From Gemmatimonadota bacterium (GTDB lineage Bacteria; Latescibacterota; UBA2968; UBA8231), in the NCBI GenBank assembly GCA_038128265.1, contig JAYPJE010000032.1, forward strand, positions 1-49,659: a stretch of DNA of 49,659 nucleotides, given 5' to 3'. The position numbers and the translations under genes are program-made. The notes below the pieces were generated by a model. It had not been told where the DNA came from, ran no database searches, and was given only the letters and a program-made list of their open reading frames with translations. Positions 1 through 48,691 of this stretch are shown here, piece by piece; position 1 is the stretch's first letter, and the number at the start of each line of letters is the position of its first letter.

Positions 1-136
1 GCGGAGCCGATAGCTGGCGGCCGGCCACGCTAAATTGCTCAAAGGTCGATATTCTGCCGCGCAGATAAAATCCGACGCCGAGCATGGCCAGCGCGTAGAT
101 CGCTACGATCAATTGGTCCAGCGGTTGGATCTGCAC
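1..136 (-). CDS. Sodium:solute symporter (SSS family), N-terminal part; truncated by window edge
   Basis: Not in the ORF track; read manually from GTG at 136: MQIQPLDQLIVAIYALAMLGVGFYLRGRISTFEQFSVAGRQLSAP. Matches the SSS N-terminal pattern D-x2-I-x3-Y...G...(D/Q)F-x-VAGR-x-L. Starts 17 nt after the decarboxylase stop. Confidence 0.75.
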   Translation of the reverse strand, partial: MQIQPLDQLIVAIYALAMLGVGFYLRGRISTFEQFSVAGRQLSAP

Positions 137-153
137 GGCGCGGCTCAGCTTGC

Positions 154-1518
154 TTAGGCCAGCTGCTGTGCGCTGTCGCGCAGAGATGGATAGCGATCGG
201 CTAGAGTTTCGGCCGCCTCGACCCGCTCCAACTGACCATCGGTGCTCCAGTAGACAGTCTGGCAGACGGGCTTGATAAAGCGCTGTGCCAGCGTTTGCAC
301 ATAGGAACCCTGCGCTGGTAATAGCAGGATATCTCCCACTGCTAAATGCGTTCCGTAATAGGCGTACCCCCACAGGTCATGGGGCGTGCACAGCGATCCG
401 TAGACTCGGCAGCGCCGCTGCTGGGTCGATGGGTGGCTCAGGTTGATAAGCGGGCAGTGTTCGCTCTCCAGGCGCTCCCATCCCAGCAAATTGGTGCCCC
501 CATCGGCAATAGCGATATCGTCGCTTTTGACATCGGCCACCTGCAGCAAGATATGCACGCCCTTATTCGCTATGTAGCGACCAGGTTCCAGCCACAGTGC
601 GAGCGGGCCGACTTTCGAGCTGACGGATTGGTCAAAGGCGGTGAAGACCTCGCTGGCCATATCCTCTATCGGCTGCACGTCGTGCAGCAGGTAGCGCAGG
701 TCCCAATCCGCGGCCGGTGCATCGGCGCCGTCTTGGCCGCTGAGCGCGCGCAGGCGCTGGGCATCGGTTAGCCACGGATAGACCGCCTCGTCGTCTTCGG
801 GGTAAAAGCCGCCGCCTATATCGACAAATTTCCAACCGTCAGTCGGTATATGAGCGGCCAGCAAAGGGCCTAGGGCGCGCAGGGTTTCCACATAGCCGCG
901 AGCCTGGCGATTCCAGCTGAGATGGAACTGCACCCCCTGCAACTGCACCCAATTCATCATTCTAGCTGCTGCCGCGAATTCACCGAGAGCGCCGGCGGGA
1001 ATGCCGAACTTTGTCCAGTTGCCGTGTGCATCCGTATTGAGTCGGATGCCCGTGCGAATGGGCGTTTGGCGCCGTGCGGCCAGCGCTTCCAGACGCTCCA
1101 ACTCCGCAAAGCTGTCTAGGTGCACCGTGACTCTATCGGCGTGGTCGAGCGCTAGCTCGAGCTCGCTGTCGCTCTTGGCCGGGCCCGAAAGGACGATGTG
1201 GGGAAAGGCGCAGTGCAGGGCCAGTTCGAGTTCGAGTCCGGACGATGCGTCGGCACACAGGCCGGCACGACAGGCCGTCTGCACGACGGGCAGAGATGGG
1301 TTGGACTTGAGGGCGTAGTGCGTTCGCGTCGGCTGCTGTGGGTGGCTAAAAGCGCGTAAGAACCGCTCGGCTTGGGCATGGATACGCGCCTCGTCGACCA
1401 AGTATTGTGGCGTGCCGAATGTTTCGCTCGCGGCGAGGAAATATCCGCGCTGTGATAGGCACTGGTCGACCAGTGAGCTGAGTTCACCGGCGCGGAGGGT
1501 AGGCGTAGAAGATATCAT
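154..1518 (-). CDS. PLP-dependent decarboxylase, Orn/DAP/Arg (LysA-like, fold type III) family; substrate unknown
   Basis: Motifs YALKSN (PLP lysine), DASSGLE, KFG, DIGGGF, EPGRY, GSLCTPHD. FHLSWN replaces the usual HIGSQ, and there is a long insert after GGGF, so it is probably not housekeeping LysA. Confidence 0.85.
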   Translation of the reverse strand: MISSTPTLRAGELSSLVDQCLSQRGYFLAASETFGTPQYLVDEARIHAQAERFLRAFSHPQQPTRTHYALKSNPSLPVVQTACRAGLCADASSGLELELALHCAFPHIVLSGPAKSDSELELALDHADRVTVHLDSFAELERLEALAARRQTPIRTGIRLNTDAHGNWTKFGIPAGALGEFAAAARMMNWVQLQGVQFHLSWNRQARGYVETLRALGPLLAAHIPTDGWKFVDIGGGFYPEDDEAVYPWLTDAQRLRALSGQDGADAPAADWDLRYLLHDVQPIEDMASEVFTAFDQSVSSKVGPLALWLEPGRYIANKGVHILLQVADVKSDDIAIADGGTNLLGWERLESEHCPLINLSHPSTQQRRCRVYGSLCTPHDLWGYAYYGTHLAVGDILLLPAQGSYVQTLAQRFIKPVCQTVYWSTDGQLERVEAAETLADRYPSLRDSAQQLA

Positions 1519-2777
1519 AGCGGATTTGGTTCCAATTCGTTGGCGAAGGTGATATGCACGGCATCAGACAATTCTCTCCACAGATCTGCTAGGCCGCTTG
1601 AATCGGGGCAATAAGCGAGGCAAGAAGCGACAATACGATCTTCGTAGCTACCGGCCCAATGGCGCAGCGTATCGCCTGGTTCGCAGTAGGCCTCGATCAA
1701 TTTGTAAAAGCTGCCGTGGGCGCGCAGGGCGGAAAAATCGATCTGCTGTATCGTGCCTTCGCGATCGCTCATGAGGTGCAGTGCACACAGCGGACGCCGC
1801 GGATGCGGCCAGTGAATGGCACGCGGGGTTTCGCCGATGGCCGCCTCGCAGGTAGCGCGTATGGGATCGTAATTAAACGCTGCTCTGCACAGGTCGGGCA
1901 AGCAGTCTCCGCCCGGACGGGGGGCCATCTCCAGCAGGTAAAACACGTCGTTAGAGAGGATGAGATCGGCCATGCCGATGCCGCGCATCATGCCCACCGC
2001 GCGCGCGGCTTGGCGCAGCGTGTCCTGTAGCTGGCGGCGCAGTCGCTGCGGTAGGTGTGGGATGCAATAGCCGCCGACGACGCCTGCCTGTGTGGGCGTT
2101 TCAACGAGGAACTTTTCACATAGGCGCAGAATGCGCAGGCGCTGTCCCTCGATAAAAAAGTCGACGCCAAACTCGCGGCCTTGAATACACCGCTGGGCTA
2201 GGTAGGCGGGCGATGGATCGTTGGGAAAGCGCTCCCGCAGACCGTGCTGGATGCGCGTATGGGCATCGGCTAACTGGCTTGGGTCGTCGATGCGCAAGAC
2301 CCATTCGCTGCCCGTCGCATCGATGGGCTTTATTATCCAAGGGGGAGAGCAGGTCGAAGCAAAGGTTTCCAATTCACTCAGGTCGTCGATGCGCTGTGCG
2401 GTCGGCACGGGAACGCCGCTGCGCTCCCACAGCGCGCCGCACCGCGCCTTGTCGCGCAGGAGAGCGGCCGTCTGTACGTCGACGTAGGGCAGACCCAGTC
2501 CAGCTGCTAAGAGTGCAGTTAGGGGTAGGTATTCACAGACAAAGCAGGCGATACCCGCGTAGCAAAGACGCTGTGTGAGAGCGTAGTCGGTGGCGCAGCG
2601 CAGCGCAGCTCGACCGTCGCTCAGATCGGCAGCGAGCGCGCGGAAGCCGGCCGTACGCAGCTCTTTAGCACGGGCTGGCCGCGCGATAAATACGGCGTTG
2701 GGGAAGTGGCTACATACTCGTCTGGCATAGTCCAGACTGGGGTGTACCACCAGTAATGGATTGTTTGAATGGGTCAT
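1515..2777 (-). CDS. ATP-grasp ligase (L-amino-acid ligase-like) 3
   Basis: LRDK, IKPIDATGSEWV, QRCIQGREFGVD, LEMAPRPGGD; LAL-type C-terminal domain. Stop overlaps the decarboxylase start. Confidence 0.85.
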   Translation of the reverse strand: MTHSNNPLLVVHPSLDYARRVCSHFPNAVFIARPARAKELRTAGFRALAADLSDGRAALRCATDYALTQRLCYAGIACFVCEYLPLTALLAAGLGLPYVDVQTAALLRDKARCGALWERSGVPVPTAQRIDDLSELETFASTCSPPWIIKPIDATGSEWVLRIDDPSQLADAHTRIQHGLRERFPNDPSPAYLAQRCIQGREFGVDFFIEGQRLRILRLCEKFLVETPTQAGVVGGYCIPHLPQRLRRQLQDTLRQAARAVGMMRGIGMADLILSNDVFYLLEMAPRPGGDCLPDLCRAAFNYDPIRATCEAAIGETPRAIHWPHPRRPLCALHLMSDREGTIQQIDFSALRAHGSFYKLIEAYCEPGDTLRHWAGSYEDRIVASCLAYCPDSSGLADLWRELSDAVHITFANELEPNPL

Positions 2778-2778
2778 G

Positions 2779-4095
2779 TCAGGATGTAATTGGATCGGTG
2801 TCGATATGAAATACGACGCGTGAGTACAGCGACTCTAGTGCGGCATCGGCACCGGGTAGGTCGGCAGCACACACGCTCATATAGCCTAGAAACTCAAAGC
2901 CGTCAGGCGGGATCAACACCCGTTCGCCAACGGAAAAGTCGAGGCACAGTTCGCTCAGGCGCGGGTCACTTTGCACGTCATCAATACCGTCGATACGCGC
3001 AATGATGCCCGACTTTTCGGGCAAAAAATAGCGCATTTTCATTGCCCCCTGCGGATGTCGACGCGGGTAGTTTCGGGGCTGTCCACTGGCAATAAGCGCG
3101 CCTTCAGCGTAGATGTCGATGCCGTGCAGCGAGTGCAGGAAGTCGGCAATATTGTCGGCGCCGCGCCGCGCCGCGATTTCGAGCACGCAGATGGCATCGC
3201 CGTCGATTTTTAACTCGCAGTGAAAACAGCTGTTGCGCAGGCCCAGTGCCCGAACGGCGCTGGCGGCGGCATCTTGGATGGCCTCTTCGCGCGCCGAGCC
3301 CAGATGTGTTGGCATCCATTCCTCGTATTCGAGAAAGTAGTCCTCGTCTTTGATGCGCTCGATTTCAATAACGCCAAAGCAGCTCACCTCGCCGTCGCTG
3401 ACAATGCCGTCAACGCTCACCTGCTGTCCGGGGATAAAGCCCTCTAATAGGAAGTGCTCTCGCGGGTCGAAGACGTCGGCTGAGGCAATGCCACGACCTG
3501 CTTCAGGCAGCCAAAATTCGAACGGATACTGGGGATTTTCCTCGCGGTAGCTATCGATGTAGGTCCGCACTGATTCAACGTGTGCGGCGATGGTGTCCAA
3601 TCCGTCCTCCGGCATGAGGCGCACGACGCCGTAGCTCGAAGAGCCGCTAATCGGTTTGAGCACCATCGGGCGGTCGTGCTGCTGTAGTATAGAACGTGCC
3701 TGCTGAGCGCTGTTGACCAAGTGGAACTCGGGTGTGGGCAGGCCGGCGTCGCGCATCGCTGTGCGCATGAGGTATTTGTTGCGCGCGCGCAGCGCGGCGG
3801 CCGGAGCGTTGGCCGGTAGGCCGAGGTGTTCGGCGATAAAGCTGGCGCCGAGCACGCCGCTTTCTGAAAAGCTAAGCACGCCGTCGACGGGGTCGCGCCT
3901 GTTGAGGTCAACCGCACAGGCTAGTGCTGCACTGAGGTCTTCCTGGTAGTCGATGTCAAACGTCGCATCGAAACAGGCCTGATCGCTGGCGTTTGGGCAG
4001 CGCTTTATTAGGCTGGCGCGAAAGCCGAGCGCGCGCAGACGCTCAACATAGGGGCGCGCATCACCGGCCGTATGAACAAAGAGTAGATGTTTCAT
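2779..4095 (-). CDS. ATP-grasp ligase (L-amino-acid ligase-like) 2
   Basis: ARNKYLMR, LKPISGSSSYGV, EGFIPGQQVSVDG, HCELK, LEIAARRGAD; LAL-type C-terminal domain. Confidence 0.88.
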   Translation of the reverse strand: MKHLLFVHTAGDARPYVERLRALGFRASLIKRCPNASDQACFDATFDIDYQEDLSAALACAVDLNRRDPVDGVLSFSESGVLGASFIAEHLGLPANAPAAALRARNKYLMRTAMRDAGLPTPEFHLVNSAQQARSILQQHDRPMVLKPISGSSSYGVVRLMPEDGLDTIAAHVESVRTYIDSYREENPQYPFEFWLPEAGRGIASADVFDPREHFLLEGFIPGQQVSVDGIVSDGEVSCFGVIEIERIKDEDYFLEYEEWMPTHLGSAREEAIQDAAASAVRALGLRNSCFHCELKIDGDAICVLEIAARRGADNIADFLHSLHGIDIYAEGALIASGQPRNYPRRHPQGAMKMRYFLPEKSGIIARIDGIDDVQSDPRLSELCLDFSVGERVLIPPDGFEFLGYMSVCAADLPGADAALESLYSRVVFHIDTDPITS

Positions 4096-5366
4096 CCTGC
4101 GGCCTCGGTATGGTAGAATACCTGCTGCTGGTCCTCAATGACAAAGGCGCTTTGCAGGCGAGCAGCCTGCGCATCTATGCGCCGGCTGGCCTCGCGGTAG
4201 CTGCGTCCCCATACGCTGATCCAAGCAAGGTTGTCATAGCCGTGCGGCGGGACGGCTACGCAGTCGCCGGGCCCCTTGGTGAGCACCACTTCGATGAGGT
4301 TGCGGCTAGCCCGCGGTTGGCCTCTGCGCTCGAGGCGCACGAGCCCCGGTTTTTCCGGAACGAGCGTGCGCGAGATACCGTAGCCTAGGGCGGCAGTCGC
4401 CGGACTGACTGGCTGACCGAGTGCGGCGCGTATGTTTTCTATAGCTAGGTCAATTCCATAGACGCGCTGTACCAGTGCGTGAATGCAGTCGCCGCCCATG
4501 CGCGCACCTATTTCGATAATGCGGGGGCCGTCAGCGGTGATTTTGACTTCTGCATGGATGCCGCAGTTGTCTAATTCCAGCGCGGCGACGCCGTTGCGCA
4601 CCATGGTGCGAATCTGTTGCTGCACGTCCTCGGGAAAGAGCGAGGGCGTGGTTTCGCCGCGCTCTACAAAGCTGTCTTCGTCCATCTTGGCCTTGTCGAT
4701 GATGGCATAGATGGTCACCTGTCCGTTTTGCACAACGCCTTCGACGCTGACCTCCGGGCCGATGAGCAGGCTTTCGAGCACGTAGGTTCCGCTCTGGTAG
4801 CGATAGATGCAGTCTTGAATGCGCACGTCATCGCGTATGGACTGGAAGGTCTGGATGGCCTGCGGCGGCGTTTCGACGCGCAGCACCCATTCGCTATCGG
4901 AACCCCATTCCGGTTTCAGCACGGCGGGTGTGCCGACCGCGGCGCAGGCCTCGATCAGCGAGCTGTGGTCGAAAAAGCGGCGAAATGTGGGAACCGGCAC
5001 GCCGGCCTGTTCAAAGGCGCGCCGCATGCGGTATTTGCTGCGTGCGGCGAGTGCGGCCTGCGGGGCGTTGCCGGGCAAGCCGAGGCGAGCGCTGATCAGC
5101 GCACAGGTTGGCACGTCTTCCTCCCAGAAGGTCACGATGCCGTCGAACTGCTCGCGGCTATGGAGATCTTCGGCGAGTGCGACAACTTCGGGAATGCTGA
5201 GTCCGGCTGTGCAGTGCGTTTGTTGGACGAGAGAAGAGGCCCAGTTGGTCTCTGGATTCAACAGGTGGACCTGGGCGCCGAGTTGGCTGGCGGCGACAAA
5301 GGTCATGCGCTTCTTCGGGGATCCGCTATGGACGAAGAGCAGCTTGGGCGAGCGGGGTTCGATCAT
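4092..5366 (-). CDS. ATP-grasp ligase (L-amino-acid ligase-like) 1
   Basis: ARSKYRMR, LKPEWGSDSEWV, ESLLIGPEVSVEG, HAEVK, IEIGARMGGD; GGAGG RBS upstream; ATGA overlap with the next gene. Confidence 0.9.
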   Translation of the reverse strand: MIEPRSPKLLFVHSGSPKKRMTFVAASQLGAQVHLLNPETNWASSLVQQTHCTAGLSIPEVVALAEDLHSREQFDGIVTFWEEDVPTCALISARLGLPGNAPQAALAARSKYRMRRAFEQAGVPVPTFRRFFDHSSLIEACAAVGTPAVLKPEWGSDSEWVLRVETPPQAIQTFQSIRDDVRIQDCIYRYQSGTYVLESLLIGPEVSVEGVVQNGQVTIYAIIDKAKMDEDSFVERGETTPSLFPEDVQQQIRTMVRNGVAALELDNCGIHAEVKITADGPRIIEIGARMGGDCIHALVQRVYGIDLAIENIRAALGQPVSPATAALGYGISRTLVPEKPGLVRLERRGQPRASRNLIEVVLTKGPGDCVAVPPHGYDNLAWISVWGRSYREASRRIDAQAARLQSAFVIEDQQQVFYHTEAAG

Positions 5367-5370
5367 CTAG

Positions 5371-5442
5371 CTAACGACCTCCGTAGGCAAGGTAGAACAG
5401 TTGAAGTGTGGATTTGCATTGGTTCGCGTCGCGCATTGACAT
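5371..5442 (-). CDS. Possible 23-aa small ORF MSMRDANQCKSTLQLFYLAYGGR
   Basis: Read manually: AAGGA followed by ATG at 5442 and TAG at 5373-5371. Fills the gap between fliG and the first ATP-grasp gene. May be spurious. Confidence 0.25.
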   Translation of the reverse strand: MSMRDANQCKSTLQLFYLAYGGR

Positions 5443-5461
5443 AGGACGTCCTTTGCTGGGA

Positions 5462-6487
5462 TTAAACGAATTGATCGTCGGAGTCGCCGCGGACAACGGT
5501 GATTTGTCCCTGCTCCTCCAACTGGCGGACCTGCTGCACGATGCGCAGCTGGACCTCTTCTACTTCGGATACGCGCATCGGTCCGAGGAATTCCATCTCC
5601 TCGGTTATGTAGGTTCGCACGCGCTCGGACATATTGCCGAGAATCTTGTTTTTCAGCTCTTCACCGGCCGTCTTGAGCGCAATGACCAGATCCTTCTGAT
5701 CGACTTCGCGCATCAGCGTCTGTATTTCTCGATCGGTCAGCCGTACGATGTCGGCAAAGACGAACATCAGGTTGCGCACCGACTCTGCTACTTCTGGGTC
5801 CATGGCATCCATCTGGTCGAGGACGTTTTTTTCGACGGATGAGCCGGTCAGGTTGAGCATATCGGCAATGACGCGGGGGCCGCCGACGTCCTGGTTGCCG
5901 CCCAGCACGTCGCGCAGCGAGGCCTCGAGGCTTTCTTCGATCTGCTTGAGGACGGCGGGCGTGATGTTTTCCATCGTGGCTATGCGATAAGCAACGCCGG
6001 CCTGCAGGCGCTCGGGTAGCTGTGAGAGAATGCCCGAAGCCTGAGCCGAATCCAGCTGCGATAGGATAAGCGCGATGGTTTGTGGATGTTCGTGGCTTAT
6101 AAAGGGAGCAATCTGCTCGGGCGAGACGTTGCGCAGCATGTAGAAACCAGAGGCCACGCGGCTGCTGACGCGGTCGAGTATTTCCTGTGCCTTGCGCGGG
6201 CCAACCGCGCGTTCGAGAGCATTGCGGGCAAAGTCGATGCCGCCCTGACTGATCCATTCACCGGCCAGCAGGTGCTGTTCGAAGTCCTCGAGAACGCGGT
6301 CCATCACTTCGACGGAAACGCTCTTGAGTGCTGCTATAGACTGGGTTATTTCCTCGACCTCGTAATCGGAGAGGTGCTTCATTACCTCTCCGGCCACGTC
6401 GTGGCCGAGGGCGACCATGACGATGGCTACGCGCTGGCGCAGGGGGATTTCGGGTTCTTCGCTAACTTCTGCTGTAGCTGAGGCCAT
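5462..6487 (-). CDS. fliG: Flagellar motor switch protein FliG (full length, stand-alone)
   Basis: QGGIDFARNALERAVG, EHPQTIALILSQL, GG linker, MFVF motif, NMSER..EEMEFLGPMRVSEVEEVQ. ATG at 6487 preferred over the track's TTG at 6496. Confidence 0.95.
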   Translation of the reverse strand: MASATAEVSEEPEIPLRQRVAIVMVALGHDVAGEVMKHLSDYEVEEITQSIAALKSVSVEVMDRVLEDFEQHLLAGEWISQGGIDFARNALERAVGPRKAQEILDRVSSRVASGFYMLRNVSPEQIAPFISHEHPQTIALILSQLDSAQASGILSQLPERLQAGVAYRIATMENITPAVLKQIEESLEASLRDVLGGNQDVGGPRVIADMLNLTGSSVEKNVLDQMDAMDPEVAESVRNLMFVFADIVRLTDREIQTLMREVDQKDLVIALKTAGEELKNKILGNMSERVRTYITEEMEFLGPMRVSEVEEVQLRIVQQVRQLEEQGQITVVRGDSDDQFV

Positions 6488-6494
6488 TGGCAAC

Positions 6495-6529
6495 AAAAAA
6501 ACCGCACAAGTAAACTATACCAGTGCGGC
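6495..6529 (-). terminator. Intrinsic terminator in the fliG leader (riboswitch expression platform)
   Basis: Minus strand GCCGCAC-TGGTATAGTTTACTT-GTGCGG-TTTTTTT, ending about 8 nt before the fliG ATG. Confidence 0.8.
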
Positions 6530-6582
6530 CTTTGCTACTCGCGCGAAGGAGTTGTCTAAATAGACCGCACTGAACGAATGGC

Positions 6583-6675
6583 CTTCGACAGTGCGGCTGT
6601 CCTTAGGTGGCCAGAGGCCAGATGAGGACCCGTTCCTTCGCGTCCTACGCTTTCGCGTAGTTTGCCTTTTCGAAA
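6583..6675 (-). ncRNA. c-di-GMP-I (GEMM-I)-like riboswitch aptamer, variant ligand pocket
   Basis: Minus strand TTTCG-AAAAGGCAAA-CTACGC-GAAA-GCGTAG-GACGC-GAAGGAACGG-GTCCTCA..TGGCC-TCT-GGCCA..CTAAGGAC-AGCCG-CACTGT-CGAAG. Shows P1 (TTTCG/CGAAG), P2 with GAAA tetraloop, GGCAAAC/GACGC core, receptor-like element and AGCCG. Lies upstream of a flagellar gene and a terminator. Confidence 0.85.
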
Positions 6676-6789
6676 CGAAGACTGAGTGAAAATGTGAATA
6701 TTATGCCCAAAAAAATCAAGGGCATATTTTTCCGACGAAGCATTATTTTTTTTCGCATCGTCAGTGGCGCTTCTTGGGCATATCGGATG

Positions 6790-7710
6790 CTATGGTTCTT
6801 GGGCCAGTCCGGCGTCGCCCTTGAGCCACTGGGGATCTTCAAAAACGGGATCGGGGTAGGTGTAAAAGCCCCTGCCGGTCTTGCAGCCCAGCTCGCCGCG
6901 AGCGACGCGGTCGGTCAGGATGGGCGGGGGTGCGTCTCGCTCCAGGCCCGATTCGCGATAGTACACGTTTTCGATATCGCATATGACGTCCAGCCCTACG
7001 CGATCCATCAGGGCAAAAGGCCCCATTTTCATACCCGTAAAAATCATCCAAGCGCGGTCGACGTTTTCGTGCGAAGTGACGCCGTCGTTCACTAGGTGTA
7101 AGGTCTCGCGTTTGATGGCGCGCCAGACGCGGTTAAAGATAAATCCGGTGCTCTCTTTATCTACGACGAGAGGCGTTACGCCGATGCGCTGGGCACAGCG
7201 GTACACGGCCTCAATGGTCTCTTCGGACGTCGCGCTGCCGCGCATCAACTCGACCATCGGGCGCTGCCAAATAAGGCCGTAAAAATGCATATTGAGGACT
7301 TTGTCGAGGCGCTGTGTGGCGCTTTCGATCGCAGAGATTTTAATCGAGGAGCTGTTGGTAGCCAAAATTGTGTCGGGGGGCGTTAATGCGTCGAGTTGGG
7401 CAAAGAGCTGGCGCTTGAGTTCGAGGCGTTCGGGAATGGCTTCTATGACTAGGCCAGCGTCGGCCACGCCCTGTTCTAGCTCTTCGACATAGGTCATGCG
7501 CGCTCGCACGGCATCACTCTCGGCCGCGTCGTGTTCGCCGTCGTCGGTGCGGCGCTGCAGCTCCGTTGCCACGGTCTGCTGTGACTGCGCGCGCGCGTGG
7601 GAAGAGGGCTCGACCAGTCGCGTCTGATAGCCGTGGGCGGCGCACTGCAGGCCGATTTGCGTGCCGAGAAAACCCGACCCAACTACGCATATATACTGAA
7701 AATCGCTCAT
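6790..7710 (-). CDS. 3-hydroxyacyl-CoA dehydrogenase family protein (NAD-binding)
   Basis: VVGSGFLGTQIG Rossmann motif, IEAIPERLELK, ATNSSS, MHF, GFIFNR, MGPFALMDRVGLD, GCKTGRGFY. Confidence 0.92.
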   Translation of the reverse strand: MSDFQYICVVGSGFLGTQIGLQCAAHGYQTRLVEPSSHARAQSQQTVATELQRRTDDGEHDAAESDAVRARMTYVEELEQGVADAGLVIEAIPERLELKRQLFAQLDALTPPDTILATNSSSIKISAIESATQRLDKVLNMHFYGLIWQRPMVELMRGSATSEETIEAVYRCAQRIGVTPLVVDKESTGFIFNRVWRAIKRETLHLVNDGVTSHENVDRAWMIFTGMKMGPFALMDRVGLDVICDIENVYYRESGLERDAPPPILTDRVARGELGCKTGRGFYTYPDPVFEDPQWLKGDAGLAQEP

Positions 7711-9479
7711 TCTACGTTCCCTTCGATAGCGGCCGCAGCACCAAAGGCATTGCGCAGGCGCTCGGCATCAAACTTCAGCGTCCGATCATAGGTGTAAATT
7801 CCGTTTTGCTCCTGCTCGATATCGGTCAACTGCGTGTAGGTAAATCCGGCCATATGGGGGTGGGCCGTCAGCGCACCGGTTAATTTTTCAATGCGTTCGT
7901 ATACCTCTTCGATGCGCTGTGGCCGGTTGCCATAGCCCCAGCCGGCCTCTCTATCGGTCCCATCGCCCGCGCTGGATTCGACCCACCAGGTGCCGCCGTA
8001 CTCATCTACCAAGTAGGGTTGGCCTCGATAGGGAATAGATAGCTCGGGGAAGCAGACGCGCGCTTGCTCCGGTCTATCCGGATGCACGGAGCGATAGGTT
8101 TCACAGAATGTGTCCGGATCCTGCTCGTAGTCGTGTACGGTAAAGATATCGGTCTTGACGTGTACGTAGCCGCTCGCATCGTGCACGGGGCGGCTTGGAT
8201 CGAGGGCGCGGGTCAGGTCATACGTGCTTTCAAGGGCGCGGCGATGAGCCTCCCGATGGCTGCGGGCGGCACCGATCGTCTCGTTAAAAGGAGTCCACGC
8301 GACGATCGATGGATGGTTGAGGTCGCGCAGGACGATTTCGCGCCATTCGCGCTGCTGGTTGGCCAGCGCCTGCGGCTGGCCAAAGTCGAGGCCCCAGTCG
8401 GAAAACTCGCCCCAAGTCAGGTAGCCCAGACGGTCTGCCCAGTAGTGAAAGCGCTCCTCGAAGACCTTCTGATGCAGGCGCGCGCCGTTAAAACCGACGG
8501 CCATAGCGCGCTCAATATCGGCTTTTAGCTCGCCGTCCGATGGGGCGGTCCACAGGCCGTCTGGATAGAAGCCCTGATCGAGCACAAAGCGCAGAAAAAT
8601 GGGCTGGTTATTCAGGTAAAATACATGGCCTTCAATGTGGAACTTGCGCAGGCCGGCGTAGGACTGCACGGAGTCGAGCACGGCTTCGTCGTCAACGAGC
8701 TCGAAACGGAGGTCGTATAGGTGAGGATCGGTCGGGCTCCACGGGCGCACCTGCGGGATATCAAGAACCAGCGAGGCGCCGCTGAGCGCAGACATGGAAG
8801 CGCTGTGTAGGATGCGTTCGCCATCGAGCAGCACCGCGCGAAAGCGCTGTCCGCGCGCGGTGCATTCAAGCGAGGGCGTCAGCACAAAGCGCTGCCCATC
8901 TAGGTCGGGCACGATGCGCACGGATTCTATGTGCGCCGCTGGAACGGCCTCTAGCCACACCGTTTGCCAGATCCCCGTTGTGCGCGTGTAGTGACAGCCG
9001 TGTGAATGCAGCTGCGCGCTCTGCTTGCCGGCCGGCTGCAGCCCCGAGCGCACGTCGTCGCGGGCCAGTACGACCAAGTCGTTGGAGCCCGTGCGCAGTG
9101 CGTCGGTGATATCAAAGTGAAACGACGAAGACGTGCCGTAGTGAACCCCTACTTCGACGCCGTTGAGCCAGGCGCGGCACTCGTAGTCGACGGCGCCAAA
9201 GTGCAGGCGCACGCGCTGGCCGAGCCACTGGGCGGGCACTTCGATGGTGCGATGGTACCACACGGCGGGCATGAAGTCGGTGTGCCCGATACCCGAAAGG
9301 TGGCTCTCAGGGCAGAAGGGAACGTTGATTTTGTCTGTTAGCACAGACGGCTGTTCATGCCAGTGGGCCTGGTGGCCTGAATCGCCGTGGTCGATGCGAA
9401 AATTCCACTCGCCGTTGAGGTTGATCCACTGCCGGCGCTGGAACTGCGGGCGCGGATGTTCGGGACGCGGAGTCATCAC
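7707..9479 (-). CDS. Glycoside hydrolase family 2 (beta-galactosidase/glucuronidase-like), no signal peptide seen
   Basis: PRPEHPRPQF, LNGEWNF, HFGAVDY, GIWQTVWLE, LDQGFYPDG, RLHQKV, NHPSIVAWTPFNE (acid/base), DEYGG (nucleophile), YTQLTDIEQEQNG. Confidence 0.93.
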   Translation of the reverse strand: MMTPRPEHPRPQFQRRQWINLNGEWNFRIDHGDSGHQAHWHEQPSVLTDKINVPFCPESHLSGIGHTDFMPAVWYHRTIEVPAQWLGQRVRLHFGAVDYECRAWLNGVEVGVHYGTSSSFHFDITDALRTGSNDLVVLARDDVRSGLQPAGKQSAQLHSHGCHYTRTTGIWQTVWLEAVPAAHIESVRIVPDLDGQRFVLTPSLECTARGQRFRAVLLDGERILHSASMSALSGASLVLDIPQVRPWSPTDPHLYDLRFELVDDEAVLDSVQSYAGLRKFHIEGHVFYLNNQPIFLRFVLDQGFYPDGLWTAPSDGELKADIERAMAVGFNGARLHQKVFEERFHYWADRLGYLTWGEFSDWGLDFGQPQALANQQREWREIVLRDLNHPSIVAWTPFNETIGAARSHREAHRRALESTYDLTRALDPSRPVHDASGYVHVKTDIFTVHDYEQDPDTFCETYRSVHPDRPEQARVCFPELSIPYRGQPYLVDEYGGTWWVESSAGDGTDREAGWGYGNRPQRIEEVYERIEKLTGALTAHPHMAGFTYTQLTDIEQEQNGIYTYDRTLKFDAERLRNAFGAAAAIEGNVE

Positions 9480-28028: not shown

Positions 28029-28514
28029 ATGTCTGCGCCTGAACTTGGCGTGTTGCGATCCTCGCCGCTTATGCATGGGATGGGGGAAGCCGATTTAGAG
28101 GCCCTGCTGGGCACGGCCGAGCGCCGTCTCTACGAGGCCGGCGATCTGATTGTCGAAGAGGACACGCCGAGCGACTGTTTGTTTATCCTGGCCGATGGGG
28201 CCGTGCGCGTCACCAAGGGCACCGGCGAAGACGCCGTTGAGCTATGCGTCCTCGAGGATAGCGGTGAGTTCTTTGGCGAGATGTCGCTTATCGATATTCT
28301 GCCTCGTTCGGCTAGCGTAGTAGCCAACAGCCAAACGCGTATATTGGCCTTTCCAAAGCGGGTTCTGACCACTCTGTTTACAAAAGTGCCGCGCGTGCAG
28401 ATGACGCTCGTGTTGAATATTGCTCGCAATTTATCGCTGCGACTGCGCGATGCCGACGAACTGATCGCAAAACTTGCACTCGAGGGCGGATCAAGCAGTA
28501 GGGGCTTAGTCTAA
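28029..28514 (+). CDS. Stand-alone cyclic nucleotide-binding domain protein
   Basis: GEFFGEMSLIDILPRSASV phosphate-binding cassette, C-helix IARNLSLRLR, no HTH. Confidence 0.9.
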   Translation: MSAPELGVLRSSPLMHGMGEADLEALLGTAERRLYEAGDLIVEEDTPSDCLFILADGAVRVTKGTGEDAVELCVLEDSGEFFGEMSLIDILPRSASVVANSQTRILAFPKRVLTTLFTKVPRVQMTLVLNIARNLSLRLRDADELIAKLALEGGSSSRGLV

Positions 28515-28985
28515 ATGGTTGATAAAGTAGAATTTATGTTCGCTTTACTCGAGGGTTCTCCCCTCTTTGAAGGCCTGAGTGAGGCCGAGATTAACGGCCT
28601 GTTGGAATGCGCTGAAGTCGATGATTTTGCCGATGGGCAAACGGTTGTTGAGGAAGGTTCGTTGGGCGACGCCATTTTTCTTCTCTGCGACGGCAAACTG
28701 TCTATCTCGACGTGCGATGCCCAGGGGCGCAAGGTAGAACTGGCCCAGTTAGATCAGCGCGGCGCCTTTTTTGGCGAGATCTCCATTGCCGATCCCGGCC
28801 CGCGCTCGGCGACTGTGTGTGCGTCCGGCAGCGCCTTGCTGCTAAAGCTTCCCCTGGAGGCGCTCGATGCATTCTTTGCTAAATTCTCCAACGCTCAGGT
28901 CGTAATTTTGCGCAATATTGCCTGCGTGCTCGCCCGGCGCCTGCGCGACTCCAACGCCCTCGTTTCGTCGCTATCTTCGTCTTAA
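28515..28985 (+). CDS. Stand-alone cyclic nucleotide-binding domain protein
   Basis: PLFEGL, VEEGSLGD, FFGEISIADPGPRSATV, IACVLARRLR. Confidence 0.9.
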   Translation: MVDKVEFMFALLEGSPLFEGLSEAEINGLLECAEVDDFADGQTVVEEGSLGDAIFLLCDGKLSISTCDAQGRKVELAQLDQRGAFFGEISIADPGPRSATVCASGSALLLKLPLEALDAFFAKFSNAQVVILRNIACVLARRLRDSNALVSSLSSS

Positions 28986-37959: not shown

Positions 37960-40900
37960 ATGAATTACGTACTTCGATTGCTCGACGTGCGGCGCAGCGA
38001 AGTCGCACGGTTGCTCTTGGCCTCGGCCGTTTTCTTTCTCGCCCAGGTCGACGATGGCATCGTCAAGAGCGTTGCTTCGGCCGTATTTAACGTGCGCGCT
38101 GGAGTCGATAAACTGCCGCTGATGTATACCTGGATTGCGGTGGTATTCTCCCTTAGTATGGCCTTGCTATCCTGGCTCACGTCAAAGCTGGCACGGCAGC
38201 GCATGCTGATGGGGCTCATGCTCTCCGTCGCAGCAGTGCTGGCGGCAAACGCCCTGTTGCTTTTATACGACCACAGCACGCCGACCAATTTGGGAGAGAA
38301 TGCCTACTCTTTTCTCTTTGTCTCTTCCGAGCTCGCGCGCACGCTGATGAATTTCCAAATCTGGATCGTGGCCGGCGGTATTTGCTATACATCGCGCGCC
38401 AAAGTGCTCTTTCCGCTCTTGGCTTCCAGTGCAGTACTCGGCGATATTGCCGGTGGTTTCATCGTGCGCTTCCTCAGTGCAGTGCTCGCTTCCCACATGC
38501 TCTACATGCTGGCCGTAGTCAATATGGTTGTTGTGCTTGTTCTGCTGCGCCAGTTGCTGCGCCGCTACTTTGTCGTGCAGGGCGGCGATGCAAACGAGGT
38601 TGGGGCCAGTCTAAAGGAAAACCTGCACTACTTTGCGCGCTCTTCGTATCTGATCCTGCTCTTTGTGCTCTCCATCGCCGTATTCGCCCTTTACACGGCG
38701 ATTCACTATGCCTTTAACGTGGTCGGCCGGCAATACTATACGTCCGAAGCCGAGATTACCGAATTTTTCGGTCTGTTTTTTGGTCTAACGGGCTTAGCGA
38801 CGCTCTTTGTAACGACGTTTTTGCTGCAGCGATTGCTGCGCTGGATGGGGACGGGCAACGTCTACTTTTGGGTTGGTGTGCTGTACGCGGGAATTGCCGG
38901 CGTGCTCTTATGTGCTTTTGAGGGCATCGTACCGCTGCCTATTGTTGCGGCGATATTTGCCGGTAATTTGCTTAACTACTTGCTGCTGGACAGCGTGATT
39001 GCTCCGGCCTACCAGGTGTTGATAAAGCTTGTTCCACCGCGCAACAGCGACGGTACGCGCATGGTTATGGAAGGCGGCTTCATGCTGCTGGGCGGCCTCG
39101 CAGGGGCCGGCATTACTTCTCTGCATGCGGGTCAGATGCTAACCTTGGGCGAGCTATTTGTCGCCCTCGGTGCGCTTGCGGTGGGTATGATCGTCTGCGG
39201 TGCGCTACTGCGGCGCAGCTACACAGCCGTGCTGGTGCGAGCCGTGCGCGAGCAAAATTTCGACCCCCAGGATGACCAGGCGATGCAGGCTACGCGCCGC
39301 TTGATTGCCCATTCCCCCGATTTCTCCCGCAGCCTACTGCTGAATAAAGACGACGGCGTGCGCCAACTTGGCATTGAGATGCTGCGGGATAATCCCGGAC
39401 CTGCCGGCGAACAGGTATGCGTAGAGCTGCTGAGCCACGACAATCCGCGCCTGCGCGGCGCGGCGCTCGATGCACTGCGTCCGCGCAGGGGGGCGGTCGG
39501 CGGCATTTTTCCCGCGGTGCTGCGCTGCTTGGACGATGCCGATGACGAGGTGCGGCTGGCCGCGGCGCGCTGTTTGGCCGCGCTGCTCGACGACGTCGTC
39601 GATGCCCAACAGCGGAATGCGGCTGGCACCGCGCTCGCCCAGCGCCTGCGCTCGGGGCAGGAGCGCGCCGCCATGCAAGCCGAATGCCTAATGGGGCTAG
39701 AGCGTCTGCAGCACGGAGAGTCGGCGACCGAGCGAGGCCAGATACTGGCAGGTCTGCTGGCCAGTGCTGACCCGGAAGAGCTCATCGCCGGAATCGAAGC
39801 GGCGGGCGGTGCGGACGATGAGCGCGTTCACTCGCAGCTGCAGGGCTTAATCGAAAGCATGCACCCCGCCGTGCGCGAGGCGGCAGTGCACAGTCTGGGA
39901 AAAATGGGAGACGAAGAGGGATACGCGCCCCTGCGACGCATGTTAGCCGATCCTGACCCCGACGTTGTTGCCGCCGCTATACAGGCATTGAGAAATATCG
40001 ATACAGCCGCCGTTCGGCGCCGTTTGGTGGACGATTTAGAGACGGCGTCGCTGCGCGAGTGGGAAGGGATATCGGCGGTGCTTATGGCGATTGAAGACGA
40101 CGCGCTCGACGATGTGCTGCTGGCGTCGTGTCGCCATCGGCTCGTCGAGGCAAACCGCTATAGGGTAGCCATTGACGCAGTGAGAGCAATCGACGACTCG
40201 GCGGGGGAGCTGCTCGTCGACCAACTGCAGTCGGAAGTCAGCGTCGTTGTCAATGGCACGGTGCGAACGCTGGGGCATATGGCCGATATGAGCGTCGTGG
40301 GCGATCTGATTGAACGGCTCGGCGGCGATGATGAGGCGGCGCGCGACAACGCGATTGAGCTGCTTGAAAATATGGCCGAGAGCGAGCTCCTATCTAGGTT
40401 GCTACCTCTGCTGTCGAGCGATGATGATGAGCAGGTGCAAGCCGCTCGAGAAATTGCAGGCTGGGAAGAGGTCGACCTGGAGCGCGTATTGGAATATCTG
40501 CTGGAAACGGGTGGGGCTTGGACACAGGTTGCCGCCCTTTGGTGTACCGTTCAGTGGCAGTATCGCTCGCTCTCTGAAAGGGCCGATATCGTGCTGGCAG
40601 AGCCTGCTCGTGGCATCATGGGCGAAATGGGTGAATATCGAGGAGATAGCGCAATGAGTGAAGAAGTGCAGCCGCTTACCACAATGGAGAAGATCACCTT
40701 TCTCAGGGGCTCTTCATTCTTTGCTGCGCTGCCGCTAGAAGAACTCTACCAGGTGGCACTGTCGATCCAGGAAGAGAGCGTGCAGGCGGGTGAAAAAGTT
40801 ATTGATGAAGGGACGATGGGGGACAAGATGTACATCGTTGTGCGCGGTGAACTCGAAGTCAAAAAAGAAGGTGGGCCGCGTCTGGCCGTGCTTGGCGAAA

Positions 40901-41091
40901 AGCAGGTATTTGGCGATATGGCCCTGCTTGACGACGAGCCGCGCTCGGCTTCTGTGCAGGCGATTGGCGATGTGCACCTGCTCTCGCTGCAGCGCGCAAA
41001 TTTAGAGCGCATACTGCGGCGCTATTCTTCGATCGCTTTCAATATGATGCGCATTCTATCTCATCGCCTGCGCGAGGCACAGGCAGGTTGA
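37960..41091 (+). CDS. MFS/NTT(TLC)-like membrane domain + HEAT repeats + cNMP-binding domain fusion
   Basis: About 12 hydrophobic segments (GVDKLPLMY, AKVLFPL), HEAT repeats (DDEVRLAAA, HPAVREAAV, DPDVVAAA), C-terminal FGDMALLDDEPRSASV. Confidence 0.85.
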   Translation: MNYVLRLLDVRRSEVARLLLASAVFFLAQVDDGIVKSVASAVFNVRAGVDKLPLMYTWIAVVFSLSMALLSWLTSKLARQRMLMGLMLSVAAVLAANALLLLYDHSTPTNLGENAYSFLFVSSELARTLMNFQIWIVAGGICYTSRAKVLFPLLASSAVLGDIAGGFIVRFLSAVLASHMLYMLAVVNMVVVLVLLRQLLRRYFVVQGGDANEVGASLKENLHYFARSSYLILLFVLSIAVFALYTAIHYAFNVVGRQYYTSEAEITEFFGLFFGLTGLATLFVTTFLLQRLLRWMGTGNVYFWVGVLYAGIAGVLLCAFEGIVPLPIVAAIFAGNLLNYLLLDSVIAPAYQVLIKLVPPRNSDGTRMVMEGGFMLLGGLAGAGITSLHAGQMLTLGELFVALGALAVGMIVCGALLRRSYTAVLVRAVREQNFDPQDDQAMQATRRLIAHSPDFSRSLLLNKDDGVRQLGIEMLRDNPGPAGEQVCVELLSHDNPRLRGAALDALRPRRGAVGGIFPAVLRCLDDADDEVRLAAARCLAALLDDVVDAQQRNAAGTALAQRLRSGQERAAMQAECLMGLERLQHGESATERGQILAGLLASADPEELIAGIEAAGGADDERVHSQLQGLIESMHPAVREAAVHSLGKMGDEEGYAPLRRMLADPDPDVVAAAIQALRNIDTAAVRRRLVDDLETASLREWEGISAVLMAIEDDALDDVLLASCRHRLVEANRYRVAIDAVRAIDDSAGELLVDQLQSEVSVVVNGTVRTLGHMADMSVVGDLIERLGGDDEAARDNAIELLENMAESELLSRLLPLLSSDDDEQVQAAREIAGWEEVDLERVLEYLLETGGAWTQVAALWCTVQWQYRSLSERADIVLAEPARGIMGEMGEYRGDSAMSEEVQPLTTMEKITFLRGSSFFAALPLEELYQVALSIQEESVQAGEKVIDEGTMGDKMYIVVRGELEVKKEGGPRLAVLGEKQVFGDMALLDDEPRSASVQAIGDVHLLSLQRANLERILRRYSSIAFNMMRILSHRLREAQAG

Positions 41092-46312: not shown

Positions 46313-47836
46313 TCAGGAGCGGATTTGTGTGTCGCTCTGCAAGCCGCGCAAGAGGCTATAGCCCGCTAGTAAGACGACTAGCGCAAAGGGAAGTCCGGTA
46401 GTGATGACCCCCGTCTGCAACGCACTAAGTCCTCCTCCAACCAGCAGCACGGCGGCAATGATGCCTTCAGTCACGGCCCAAAAGACGCGCTGTGCGGTCG
46501 GTGGATCGGGGTGGCCGCCGGCTGTAATGATGTCGATGACGAGGGAAGCGGAGTCGGACGAAGTGACAAAGAAGATGGCGATGACTACGACGCTAAGTGC
46601 TGAAGTCAGTGCGGCCAGCGGTAAGCTATCCAAGAGCACAAAGAGCGCTGTCGAGACGTTTGCGTTGACGGCATCCATGATGCCCCCACTGCCGTACATT
46701 TCGCTAAAGAGGGCGCTGTTGCCAAAGACCGTTAACCAAAGAAAAGTAATGGAAGTTGGCACCAACAGAACGCCGAGCAGAAACTGGCGTATGGTCCGTC
46801 CGCGCGATATACGGGCGATGAAAATGCCGACAAAGGGAGACCAGGCAATCCACCAAGCCCAGTAGAAAATAGTCCAACTGTGTTGCCATGTGCCCTGCGC
46901 GTCGTAGGCCTCAGTCATTAGGCCAAGTTTGACGATGTTTGATAGATAGGCGCCGATATTTTGAATCAGGGAATCGAGTAGGTGCAGAGAAGGGCCGGCG
47001 AGAAATACAAAAATGAGCAGGGCCGTGGCGACAATCATATTGAGCTCTGAGAGGCGGCGAATGCCCTTGTCGATGCCCAGGACGACCGAAGCTGTTGCCA
47101 TCAGCGTGATAAAGGCGATGAGTGCGGTTTGTTGACTGCTGCCCAGGCCGATGGAGAACAGATAGTCGAGTCCGGCATTGACTTGCTGGGCGCCTAAGCC
47201 AAGGGAGGTCGCTAGGCCGAATAGCGTGGCGACGGCGGCCAATGTGTCGATCAAGTTGCCAATGGGGCCATGGATGCGTTCGCCCAATAGGGGGTAGAAG
47301 ACCGAGCGAATGGTGAGCGGTAAGGCGCGATTGAACGAGAAGTAGGCCAATCCCAGTGCCATGAGTGCATAGAGGGCCCAGGCGTGTAGCCCCCAGTGGA
47401 AGAAGGTGATACCCATCGCTAACTCGGCTGCCTGGGGGGTTTGGGCTTCTCCCCAAGGTGGAGCTGCAAAATGAAACATGGGCTCGGCAACGCTCCAGAA
47501 TACCAGTCCAATGCCCATGCCGGCGCTGAAGAGCATGGAAAACCAGCTCCACGTAGCAAACTCTGGTCGCGCATCTTCTCCGCCCAGGCGAATAGTTCCA
47601 TAACGACTGAGAAGCAGGTAGATGACGATACCCAAATAGATATTGACCGAAAGGACGAAGAGCCATCCTGCATGGGTCGTAATCGCCGTCTGCACGGCGC
47701 TGAATACCTCGCTTAGCTCCGAGAGGTAGAGCAGACTAAAGGCAACAAAAAAAGTGCTCAAACCTGCAGACGACCAGAACACGGTGGGATGTACGTGCAG
47801 TTTCCATCGATTGCTGTCGGTATCGGTCAAGTTCAA
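46313..47836 (-). CDS. BCCT-family transporter (glycine betaine, BetP/OpuD-like)
   Basis: SMLFSAGMGIGLVFW, FFHWGLHAW, WTIFYWAWWIAWSPFVGIFIARISRGRTIRQF, FFVTSSDS. AGMGIG rather than the AGIGID of choline BetT; no long C-terminal domain. Confidence 0.93.
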   Translation of the reverse strand: MNLTDTDSNRWKLHVHPTVFWSSAGLSTFFVAFSLLYLSELSEVFSAVQTAITTHAGWLFVLSVNIYLGIVIYLLLSRYGTIRLGGEDARPEFATWSWFSMLFSAGMGIGLVFWSVAEPMFHFAAPPWGEAQTPQAAELAMGITFFHWGLHAWALYALMALGLAYFSFNRALPLTIRSVFYPLLGERIHGPIGNLIDTLAAVATLFGLATSLGLGAQQVNAGLDYLFSIGLGSSQQTALIAFITLMATASVVLGIDKGIRRLSELNMIVATALLIFVFLAGPSLHLLDSLIQNIGAYLSNIVKLGLMTEAYDAQGTWQHSWTIFYWAWWIAWSPFVGIFIARISRGRTIRQFLLGVLLVPTSITFLWLTVFGNSALFSEMYGSGGIMDAVNANVSTALFVLLDSLPLAALTSALSVVVIAIFFVTSSDSASLVIDIITAGGHPDPPTAQRVFWAVTEGIIAAVLLVGGGLSALQTGVITTGLPFALVVLLAGYSLLRGLQSDTQIRS

Positions 47837-47857
47837 ATTTCCTGTTTTGGTATGGCC

Positions 47858-48688: not shown

Positions 48689-48691
48689 GGT

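Follow-up and report, generated by a model that had tools for sequence, protein, structure and literature searches.

Ligase/decarboxylase pairs operate in the biosynthesis of butirosin (BtrJ/BtrK, with the carrier protein BtrI), closthioamide (CtaD/CtaF) and fluvirucin (FlvN/FlvO), and in the spermidine route of carboxyspermidine dehydrogenase and decarboxylase (CASDH/CANSDC) a four-carbon amino-acid unit is put on a polyamine, after which a fold-type III pyridoxal 5'-phosphate (PLP)-dependent decarboxylase exposes a terminal amine. In the first three systems, as treated in passages of PMC11350588, Glu or Asp is attached via its side-chain carboxyl and then alpha-decarboxylated, which gives a gamma-aminobutyrate (GABA) or beta-alanine unit; the CASDH/CANSDC route is mentioned in passages of PMC10407285. 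For phevamine, passages of PMC6187163 describe two ATP-grasp enzymes, HsvC and HsvB, which add Val and then Phe to amidinospermidine. Here we describe a four-gene cassette located within bases 1-49,659 of contig C32 (JAYPJE010000032.1), referred to as the window, from a Gemmatimonadota metagenome-assembled genome (MAG), which comprises 102 contigs and 4.29 Mb and is 84% complete. The cassette encodes three ATP-grasp ligases of the L-amino acid ligase (LAL) type (AG1, AG2 and AG3) and a PLP-dependent decarboxylase (DC).

We propose, with a probability of roughly 0.55, that the cassette is an assembly line independent of nonribosomal peptide synthetases (NRPS), which makes a small amide-linked, amine-terminated molecule, i.e. 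a conjugate of diamine or polyamine type that carries a peptidyl or aminoacyl group. On this reading the four genes make up a single operon and represent a conserved pathway with no described match, the logic of which has precedents. No match to a characterised pathway was found in NCBIfam or the PDB, and no description of the gene set was found in open-access papers or bioRxiv, in agreement with the first-pass annotation of this DNA, which had recognised none. That annotation, made from the letters alone, had suggested an NRPS-independent route to an amine-capped amide; this is still the best reading in kind, while the product is one that we infer.

The arrangement of the genes is not due to chance, since the order AG1-AG2-AG3-DC recurs in all 20 related loci with at least 3.9 kb of sequence upstream of DC, as expected if the four genes were a cluster in the sense of the first-pass annotation. 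These loci belong to a window-type set of 27 (the window, L005, L006, 13 genome loci and 11 metagenome loci); a scan with a single protein returned 2 loci only, and the broader set came from the genomes of the phylum and an alignment-based metagenome scan. DC orthologues (58-88% identity) are present in 16 of 168 Gemmatimonadota genomes, including that of the window, and are spread over 6 of 49 genera and 2 of 14 families (2 of the 52 high-quality genomes). The coupling observed in the first pass was confirmed at each junction: AG1 and AG2 have ATGA in common, AG2 and AG3 are separated by one nucleotide (TGA-C-ATG), and AG3 and DC again overlap by ATGA. Judging by these junctions, there is no room for an extra gene within the compact unit of four genes and 5.2 kb. 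In a scan of positions 1-8000 there were 3 promoter-like sites where 2.6 were expected; neither the gap between AG1 and the upstream FliG gene nor any of the gene junctions held a terminator-like site.

The second line of evidence comes from the AG3-DC pair. A metagenome scan with the DC alignment gave at least 513 relatives, and 80 loci were kept. In 69 of them (L047-L115) the DC is ~40% identical to that of the window, and all 69 lack AG1 and AG2. An ATP-grasp gene lies directly upstream of DC in each of the 54 distant loci with room for it, and its best match is always AG3. The genes further upstream encode a FemAB-like acetyltransferase (PF13480; 46 of 46), an AdoMet_dc-family (SpeD-like) protein (40 of 43) and a TetR regulator (34 of 38). 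The resulting five-gene operon (TetR, AdoMet_dc-like, FemAB-like, ATP-grasp, DC) occurs on dozens of metagenome contigs from sediment and saline habitats, and no published description of it was found. The SpeD-like protein keeps the self-processing Ser but has ETSLISAHF versus ESHLAIHTWPE in the MAG's own SpeD, and may have an altered substrate. An ATP-grasp protein linked to AdoMetDC is described in passages of PMC11237479, where it is a relative of glutathionylspermidine synthetase in a PspA operon, i.e. a different system; the neofunctionalisation of SpeD is the subject of PMC10407285, in passages of which ATP-grasp, GNAT and TetR are unmentioned.

Phylogenetic analysis agrees with this division. 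The ligase tree contained 72 sequences (17 AG1, 19 AG2, 13 AG3 and every second one of 45 distant ligases). A branch set each group apart from the rest (SH-aLRT 99-100), and AG3 together with the distant ligases was split from AG1 together with AG2 (SH-aLRT 100). A tree of DC with 84 rows, for which the LysA of the genome served as root, showed the same split with a support of 100. It therefore appears that AG3 and DC form a pair of older origin, widespread over many phyla, to which AG1 and AG2 are a lineage-specific addition. The first-pass annotation had treated the three ligases as one set; they do occur together in the cassette, but they are not equivalent.

Natural fusions join the same proteins. 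An AG3-type profile matched 614 representatives (50%-identity clusters) at E<=1e-30 among 1.84 billion proteins, and the best 150 were listed. Among the matches listed there were four ATP-grasp-DC fusions (P0241, P0294, P0333 and P0350) and one ATP-grasp-ATP-grasp-DC fusion (P0285). These five proteins share only 39-43% identity over their whole length, yet QFHTSW and EPGR are kept in all five and LCTPHD in four, so they are maintained fusions rather than assembly errors. P0245 is an AG2-AG3 fusion, with 56% and 46% identity to AG2 and AG3 of the window, respectively, and P0247 joins FemAB to an AG3-type ligase. As such fusions link them, AG2, AG3 and DC act in one process. A further protein, P0372 (2739 aa), consists of one NRPS module (A-C-PCP-TE) with two LAL-type ATP-grasp domains at its C-terminal side, the last of AG3 type, and is a hybrid of NRPS and ATP-grasp ligation within one polypeptide.

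Examination of the proteins supported the first-pass assignment of three divergent LAL-type ligases and a LysA-fold decarboxylase. All three ligases carry the ATP-grasp_4 domain (PF13535, cut-off 27 bits): AG1 at 76.1 bits (3e-21), AG2 at 57.4 bits (1.7e-15) and AG3 at 40.1 bits (3.6e-10). AG1 also has ATPgrasp_N, and LAL_C2 (cut-off 29.4 bits) is matched by AG1 (31.6 bits) and AG2 (45.4 bits). The Pfam search gave no LAL_C2 match in AG3, which was matched by ATP-grasp_3 (2.2e-11) as well. The LAL fold of AG3 is instead indicated by its AlphaFold model (pLDDT 91), which superposes over its full length on the L-amino-acid ligase BL00235 (3vot) with a TM score of 0.79; alignments of 433-436 columns were obtained with BL00235 (TM 0.76-0.80), RizA and BacD. 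The closest solved structures are BL00235 (3vot, 3.1e-19) and BacD for AG1, and 3vot and BacD for AG2. With pairwise identities of 32% (AG1-AG2), 28% (AG1-AG3) and 22% (AG2-AG3), the three ligases are distant paralogues. An Atlas search with AG3 retrieved generic ATP-grasp/LAL clusters only. Identity of AG1 homologues drops abruptly from 47% to 34% outside the window-type cluster; the 47% match comes from an Omnitrophica-labelled MAG, the same contig of which carries a 46%-identical DC, and no AG1 homologue bears a functional name.

The decarboxylase has the features of a fold-type III PLP-dependent enzyme, i.e. the PLP lysine, GGG loop, EPGR, catalytic Cys and both domains (Orn_Arg_deC_N, 5.9e-23; Orn_DAP_Arg_deC, 25.8 bits with a cut-off of 23). 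No variation was seen among 16 family members at K71, H199, G235-237, E311-R314, C377, D381 and Y406. On the LysA equivalog model TIGR01048 (cut-off 297.9 bits) DC scored 130.8 bits, and a second LysA-like gene of the MAG, on contig C100, scored 260.8 bits. In an alignment of DC relatives with the C100 protein, the PLP lysine, the GGG loop, EPG and the catalytic Cys were conserved, and DC has CTPHD at the position of CESGD, LGWERLE where LysA has RPxxY (LRPSLY in the C100 protein), and an insertion of ~45 residues after the GGG loop. In LysA, CE[ST]xD and RPxxY bind the distal end of diaminopimelate (DAP). LysA proteins from the PDB and the C100 protein have CESGD, CETGD or CESSD, and RPSLY, RPSIY or RPAMY. 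The corresponding motif is CTP[HQ]D in the DC family, CTPED in BtrK and CMQHD in FslC, and RPxxY is absent from BtrK and FslC as well as from DC. As a better LysA is encoded on C100 and DC lacks the LysA substrate motifs, DC is, to judge from its sequence, not the housekeeping LysA; the first-pass annotation had named the opposite as one of three points that could overturn its proposal, and none of the three did so.

A profile of the 16 DC family members gave similar PDB scores for LysA (2p3e, 138 bits), FslC (7kh2, 136 bits), BtrK (130 bits, one of the five best matches) and SbnH (128 bits), and Foldseek aligned the predicted DC model (pLDDT 88) with DokD, LysA, FslC and BtrK at TM ~0.74. Because its motifs resemble those of BtrK and FslC, and the profile scores of FslC, BtrK and SbnH lie near that of LysA, DC resembles those members of the clade that serve in tailoring and take side-chain-linked conjugates as substrates.

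The genes surrounding the cassette point to polyamine chemistry. In the 22 loci with at least 1.1 kb downstream of DC, the commonest accessory gene, directly downstream in 11, encodes a Hist_deacetyl protein which is a full-length homologue of acetylpolyamine amidohydrolases (APAH; 9gkz, 7.9e-81, and 3q9b, 6e-78). A gene of the sodium:solute symporter (SSS) family follows in 4 loci and a RimL-like GNAT in 2; in L046, an extra short locus, a GNAT gene lies directly after DC. The SSS gene, which the first-pass annotation had counted as part of the cluster, does follow DC in the window but is not a conserved part of it. An HDAC-family gene on contig C19 of the MAG was considered as an APAH orthologue and rejected (~30% identity over half its length). 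Among the open reading frames (ORFs) scanned in 14 neighbourhoods there was no IucA/IucC, siderophore receptor or transport gene, or exporter, which argues against the metallophore that the first pass had listed as one option; polyamine chemistry is indicated instead.

On this basis a sequence of reactions may be outlined. PLP-dependent decarboxylation requires a free alpha-amine beside the leaving carboxylate, so the residue attacked by DC should be either free or held by its side chain. Most likely AG3 ligates and DC then decarboxylates, because of the strict AG3 linkage, the fusions and the BtrK/FslC-like motifs. In the initial step AG3 would join a carboxylate and an amine at the expense of ATP, so that an amino acid becomes linked by its side chain and its alpha-amino-acid head is left free. 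The amino acid might be Glu or Asp, joined via the omega-carboxyl to an amine, e.g. a polyamine, or else a diamino acid (Orn, Lys or 2,4-diaminobutyrate, DAB), acylated on the omega-amine. DC would then form the PLP aldimine with the free alpha-amine and strip the alpha-carboxylate, exposing a new terminal primary amine, i.e. that of a GABA- or beta-alanyl-amide in the former case and of an N-acyl-diamine in the latter. AG1 and AG2, as paralogues of the L-amino-acid-ligase type, would add one amino acid each. Finally, accessory proteins which vary among lineages (an APAH-type deacylase, or a RimL-like GNAT with an SSS importer) would set the acetylation or supply of the amine. APAH enzymes hydrolyse N-acyl-diamine and N-acyl-polyamine bonds, which would explain why the APAH gene recurs; its product could serve a deprotecting or recycling step, and in the lineage of the window the GNAT would work the other way. 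Either variant of the ligation, or the reverse order of the steps, would lead to the same class of product, a molecule that contains an amide link and ends in a primary amine.

Comparison with the described systems shows where the cassette agrees with them and where it departs. Like BtrK, DC has CTPxD at the catalytic Cys and no RPxxY, and the ligase and decarboxylase genes are adjacent as for BtrJ/BtrK; AG3 has the LAL fold and is likened to BtrJ by its described role. DC is, however, only ~20% identical to BtrK, the cassette has two further ligases and no aminoglycoside genes, and no acyl-carrier protein (PP-binding) match was found in the cluster or in the scanned flanking ORFs. The same scan gave no amidinotransferase domain, whereas the hsv genes of Pseudomonas syringae include an amidinotransferase and no decarboxylase. 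According to passages of PMC6187163, the ATP-grasp ligases of the HsvA/HsvB/HsvC pathway build an amine-rich peptidyl-polyamine without NRPS, as those of the cassette would; the plant-pathogen context is missing here. In the FslA/FslC (FigA/FigC) and SbnH systems the side-chain amine of a diamino acid is amidated and a LysA-fold decarboxylase yields an N-acyl-diamine. FslC (7kh2), an N-citrylornithine decarboxylase by its PDB title, is the second-best PDB match of the DC family profile. The ligase of these systems is an IucA/IucC synthetase of the NRPS-independent siderophore (NIS) type and not an ATP-grasp enzyme, and siderophore uptake genes were not seen beside the cassette in the scanned neighbourhoods. 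With the L-amino acid ligases BacD/YwfE, BL00235, RizA and DdaF, which provide the closest solved structures for all three of them, the cassette ligases have the fold and domain set (ATP-grasp_4, LAL_C2) in common, but identity is below 20% in structure alignments and the cassette couples three paralogues to a decarboxylase. The CASDH/CANSDC route follows the same attach-then-decarboxylate logic to a terminal amine; there the C-N bond is an amine formed by reductive amination, in contrast to an amide made by an ATP-grasp ligase, and the nspC model TIGR01047 gives DC no more than 36 bits.

Among other explanations, the reverse order of steps deserves the most attention. It assumes that DC decarboxylates free Orn, Lys, Arg or DAB and thereby supplies a diamine, which the three ligases acylate stepwise. 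DokD, a D-Orn/D-Lys decarboxylase, tops the structure search with DC; in the literature, E-64 clusters have a dispensable PLP decarboxylase as amine supplier (in passages of PMC12568646) and HsvB and HsvC acylate a preformed polyamine (likewise in passages of PMC6187163). Yet DC always accompanies AG3 in the 54 distant loci, and five divergent fusions join them, which would be unusual for a supplier of a common metabolite. Moreover, DC resembles BtrK in having Thr after the catalytic Cys, at a position where LysA alignments show an acidic residue. In LysA and ornithine decarboxylase this acidic residue contacts the distal amine. We therefore consider the reverse order unlikely. A degradative or salvage function, in which an amine or acetylpolyamine, once imported, would be marked by the ligases for breakdown, as in the gamma-glutamylation of putrescine catabolism, could account for the importer (SSS) and deacylase (APAH) among the accessory genes. 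Three ATP-using ligases and a decarboxylase, in a core without oxidase, dehydrogenase or amidase, do not look like a degradative route, however, and the core is kept without accessory genes in 7 of 22 loci; this reading is highly improbable, the least credited of all.

The molecule could also end up outside the cytoplasm. As an envelope decoration, an aminoacyl or amine group would be placed on a peptidoglycan stem, exopolysaccharide or lipid, as in the PEP-CTERM/exosortase sets of FemAB plus decarboxylase; the distant operon does encode a FemAB protein (PF13480) with a weak match to TIGR03019 (pepcterm_femAB), and the distant DC scored 121.9 bits on TIGR03099, the model of exosortase-associated decarboxylases. 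Both scores are far under the cut-offs (260 and 478 bits, respectively), the Gemmatimonadota-type clusters scanned had no neighbouring gene for a glycosyltransferase, Mur protein, flippase or exosortase, and all four proteins belong to families of soluble enzymes, so that we regard such a role as very improbable. Slightly less credible still is a bioactive di- or tripeptide for secretion, such as an antibiotic or toxin resembling bacilysin, dapdiamide or tabtoxin, or an NIS-type metallophore. LAL enzymes do make bacilysin, dapdiamide and rhizocticin, and the NCBIfam models of BacD and DdaF matched the ligases, but at 44-74 bits versus cut-offs of 840-850. LysA-fold decarboxylases likewise function in rhizoferrin and staphyloferrin B synthesis, with FslC and SbnH among the top PDB matches of the DC family profile; in the conserved neighbourhood scanned, on the other hand, there was no IucA/IucC, TonB-dependent receptor, exporter or self-resistance gene, and the sole transporter is of the SSS family, the members of which are importers.

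Several observations weigh against the assembly line that we prefer, or against its details. LAL enzymes usually activate the alpha-carboxylate, and the LAL fold of AG3 would fit the route through an N-omega-acyl-diamino acid better, while the CTPxD motif of DC looks like that of BtrK; these clues conflict. Unlike BtrJ/BtrK, the cluster has no carrier protein gene, and DC could act first, on a free amino acid. The LysA candidate on C100 is, like DC, under the TIGR01048 cut-off. The link to polyamines rests on accessory genes, and the 7 loci mentioned above have no APAH, SSS or GNAT gene downstream; in the distant loci an aminopropyltransferase homologue follows in 5 of 69 and a GNAT-HDAC fusion lies nearby in 3 of 69, both of which are infrequent. 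The trees come from quick searches with long-branch warnings, and that of the ligases had no outgroup. Lastly, the sets of loci are partly redundant, L034 and L044 being one contig of 26,907 bp.

As regards the role of the proposed conjugate, we lean towards a polyamine-like solute kept in the cytoplasm of estuarine and marine bacteria rather than a secreted compound, because an importer is present, an exporter was not seen, and the DNA of the stretch occurs in metagenome runs of estuary, marine and seawater type, which come from 9 studies; this is the weakest step of the interpretation. The SSS family is known for uptake. No RNA run is among the listed runs that carry this DNA. In three loci, which represent two genera, an MscS-type mechanosensitive channel gene lies at a distance of 1-3 genes from the cassette; this is too few for a linkage, although it would fit a solute role. 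A broader view, which we hold only tentatively and think doubtful as it stands, is that the AG3-DC module adds one aminoacyl unit to amines or polyamines and unmasks a terminal amine, giving 'pseudo-polyamines', with lineage-specific modules acting upstream. These modules would be the SpeD-like and FemAB-like proteins in many sediment bacteria and the two LAL ligases in Gemmatimonadota, where a peptidyl-polyamine would serve as cytoplasmic solute in saline habitats; AG3-DC would then be the amide-forming counterpart of the carboxyspermidine dehydrogenase/decarboxylase route.

The cassette does extend past the left edge of the window, as was supposed in the first pass: base 1 is the contig end and cuts the SSS gene, whose GTG start lies 17 nt after the TAA stop of DC. 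Its stub matches, with 87% identity, the N-terminal end of a PF00474 protein (SSF, 1.8e-31) of 486 aa, which occupies the equivalent position in L005, from a MAG of the same genus. A query derived from the stub did not find the remainder of the gene in the MAG of the window, which is 84% complete. The end of contig C13 carries genes for GDPD, an alpha/beta hydrolase and a GNAT, the last 85% identical to its L005 orthologue, which has the same neighbours. Since the end of C13 and positions 1-136 of C32 match both sides of the SSS gene in L005, the two contigs are neighbours, separated by an unassembled gap of ~1.3 kb into which most of the SSS gene falls.

On the other side of the cassette, the genes upstream of AG1 vary among loci, and FliG is found there only in the genus of the window (L005, L006). 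ORFs of ~195 aa beside AG1 in L028, L030 and L032 were considered as a shared upstream gene, but gave no alignment and are spurious. The FliG of the window is full-length and is flanked by a 3-hydroxyacyl-CoA dehydrogenase gene, not by flagellar genes; three contigs of the MAG carry full-length FliG paralogues (100%, 71% and 45% identity to it), and FliF lies on a fourth. At the far end of the window, a BCCT betaine/carnitine/choline transporter gene followed by two genes of S-adenosylmethionine (SAM)-dependent methyltransferases suggests an osmolyte locus, with glycine-betaine synthesis via glycine/sarcosine methylation plus uptake. In between, there are two adjacent small cyclic-nucleotide-binding proteins and a 1043-aa HEAT-repeat protein ending in a cNMP-binding domain, with an HDOD protein and a PAS histidine kinase nearby.

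Table 1. Positions of the cassette genes and other features discussed in the text. Positions with no prefix refer to the window; others refer to the contig (C) or locus (L) named.
Feature	Position	Strand	Description	Basis
AG1	4092-5366	-	LAL-type ATP-grasp ligase, 424 aa	ORF, Pfam
AG2	2779-4095	-	LAL-type ATP-grasp ligase, 438 aa, with an insertion within the ATP-grasp domain	ORF, Pfam
AG3	1515-2777	-	divergent ATP-grasp ligase with the LAL fold, 420 aa, conserved alongside the decarboxylase	ORF, Pfam, model
DC	154-1518	-	putative fold-III (LysA-clade) PLP-dependent tailoring decarboxylase, 454 aa	Pfam, motifs, model
SSS stub	2-136	-	start (45 codons) of a sodium:solute symporter gene, truncated where the contig ends	translation
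SSF protein of L005	L005:11384-12844			PF00474
End of contig C13	C13:84234-86789		GDPD, alpha/beta hydrolase, GNAT	
LysA candidate	C100:2973-4202			TIGR01048
Distant five-gene operon, example	L050:5462-10308			
Distant five-gene operon, example	L060:4926-9794			
Distant five-gene operon, example	L074:5556-10254			
MscS-type channel	L034:6618-7841			
MscS-type channel	L035:5249-6472			
MscS-type channel	L027:9930-10859			
FliG	5462-6496	-	gene upstream of AG1	TIGR00207, 346 bits
FliG or FliF gene	C26:13709-14704			
FliG or FliF gene	C68:12806-13786			
FliG or FliF gene	C37:16772-18244			
Cyclic-nucleotide-binding proteins	28029-28985	+		
HEAT-repeat protein	37960-41091	+		
BCCT transporter and methyltransferases	46313-49534	-		PF02028, 7e-193

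What appears to be new here is the recognition of AG3-DC as an older pair, present in a different operon at ~40% identity and in natural fusions. The authors of the phevamine study remark, in passages of PMC6187163, that NRPS-independent ATP-grasp pathways are hard to genome-mine and that few have been solved. The present cassette is conserved and compact, and therefore suited to heterologous expression, and its ligase-decarboxylase pair recurs, partly fused, across many uncultured lineages beside polyamine genes. Solving it would assign a function to several hundred protein clusters, which are currently named 'alanine racemase', 'diaminopimelate decarboxylase' or 'biotin carboxylase' in their sources, and could yield a new class of bacterial polyamine conjugates together with a new biosynthetic logic for terminal amines.

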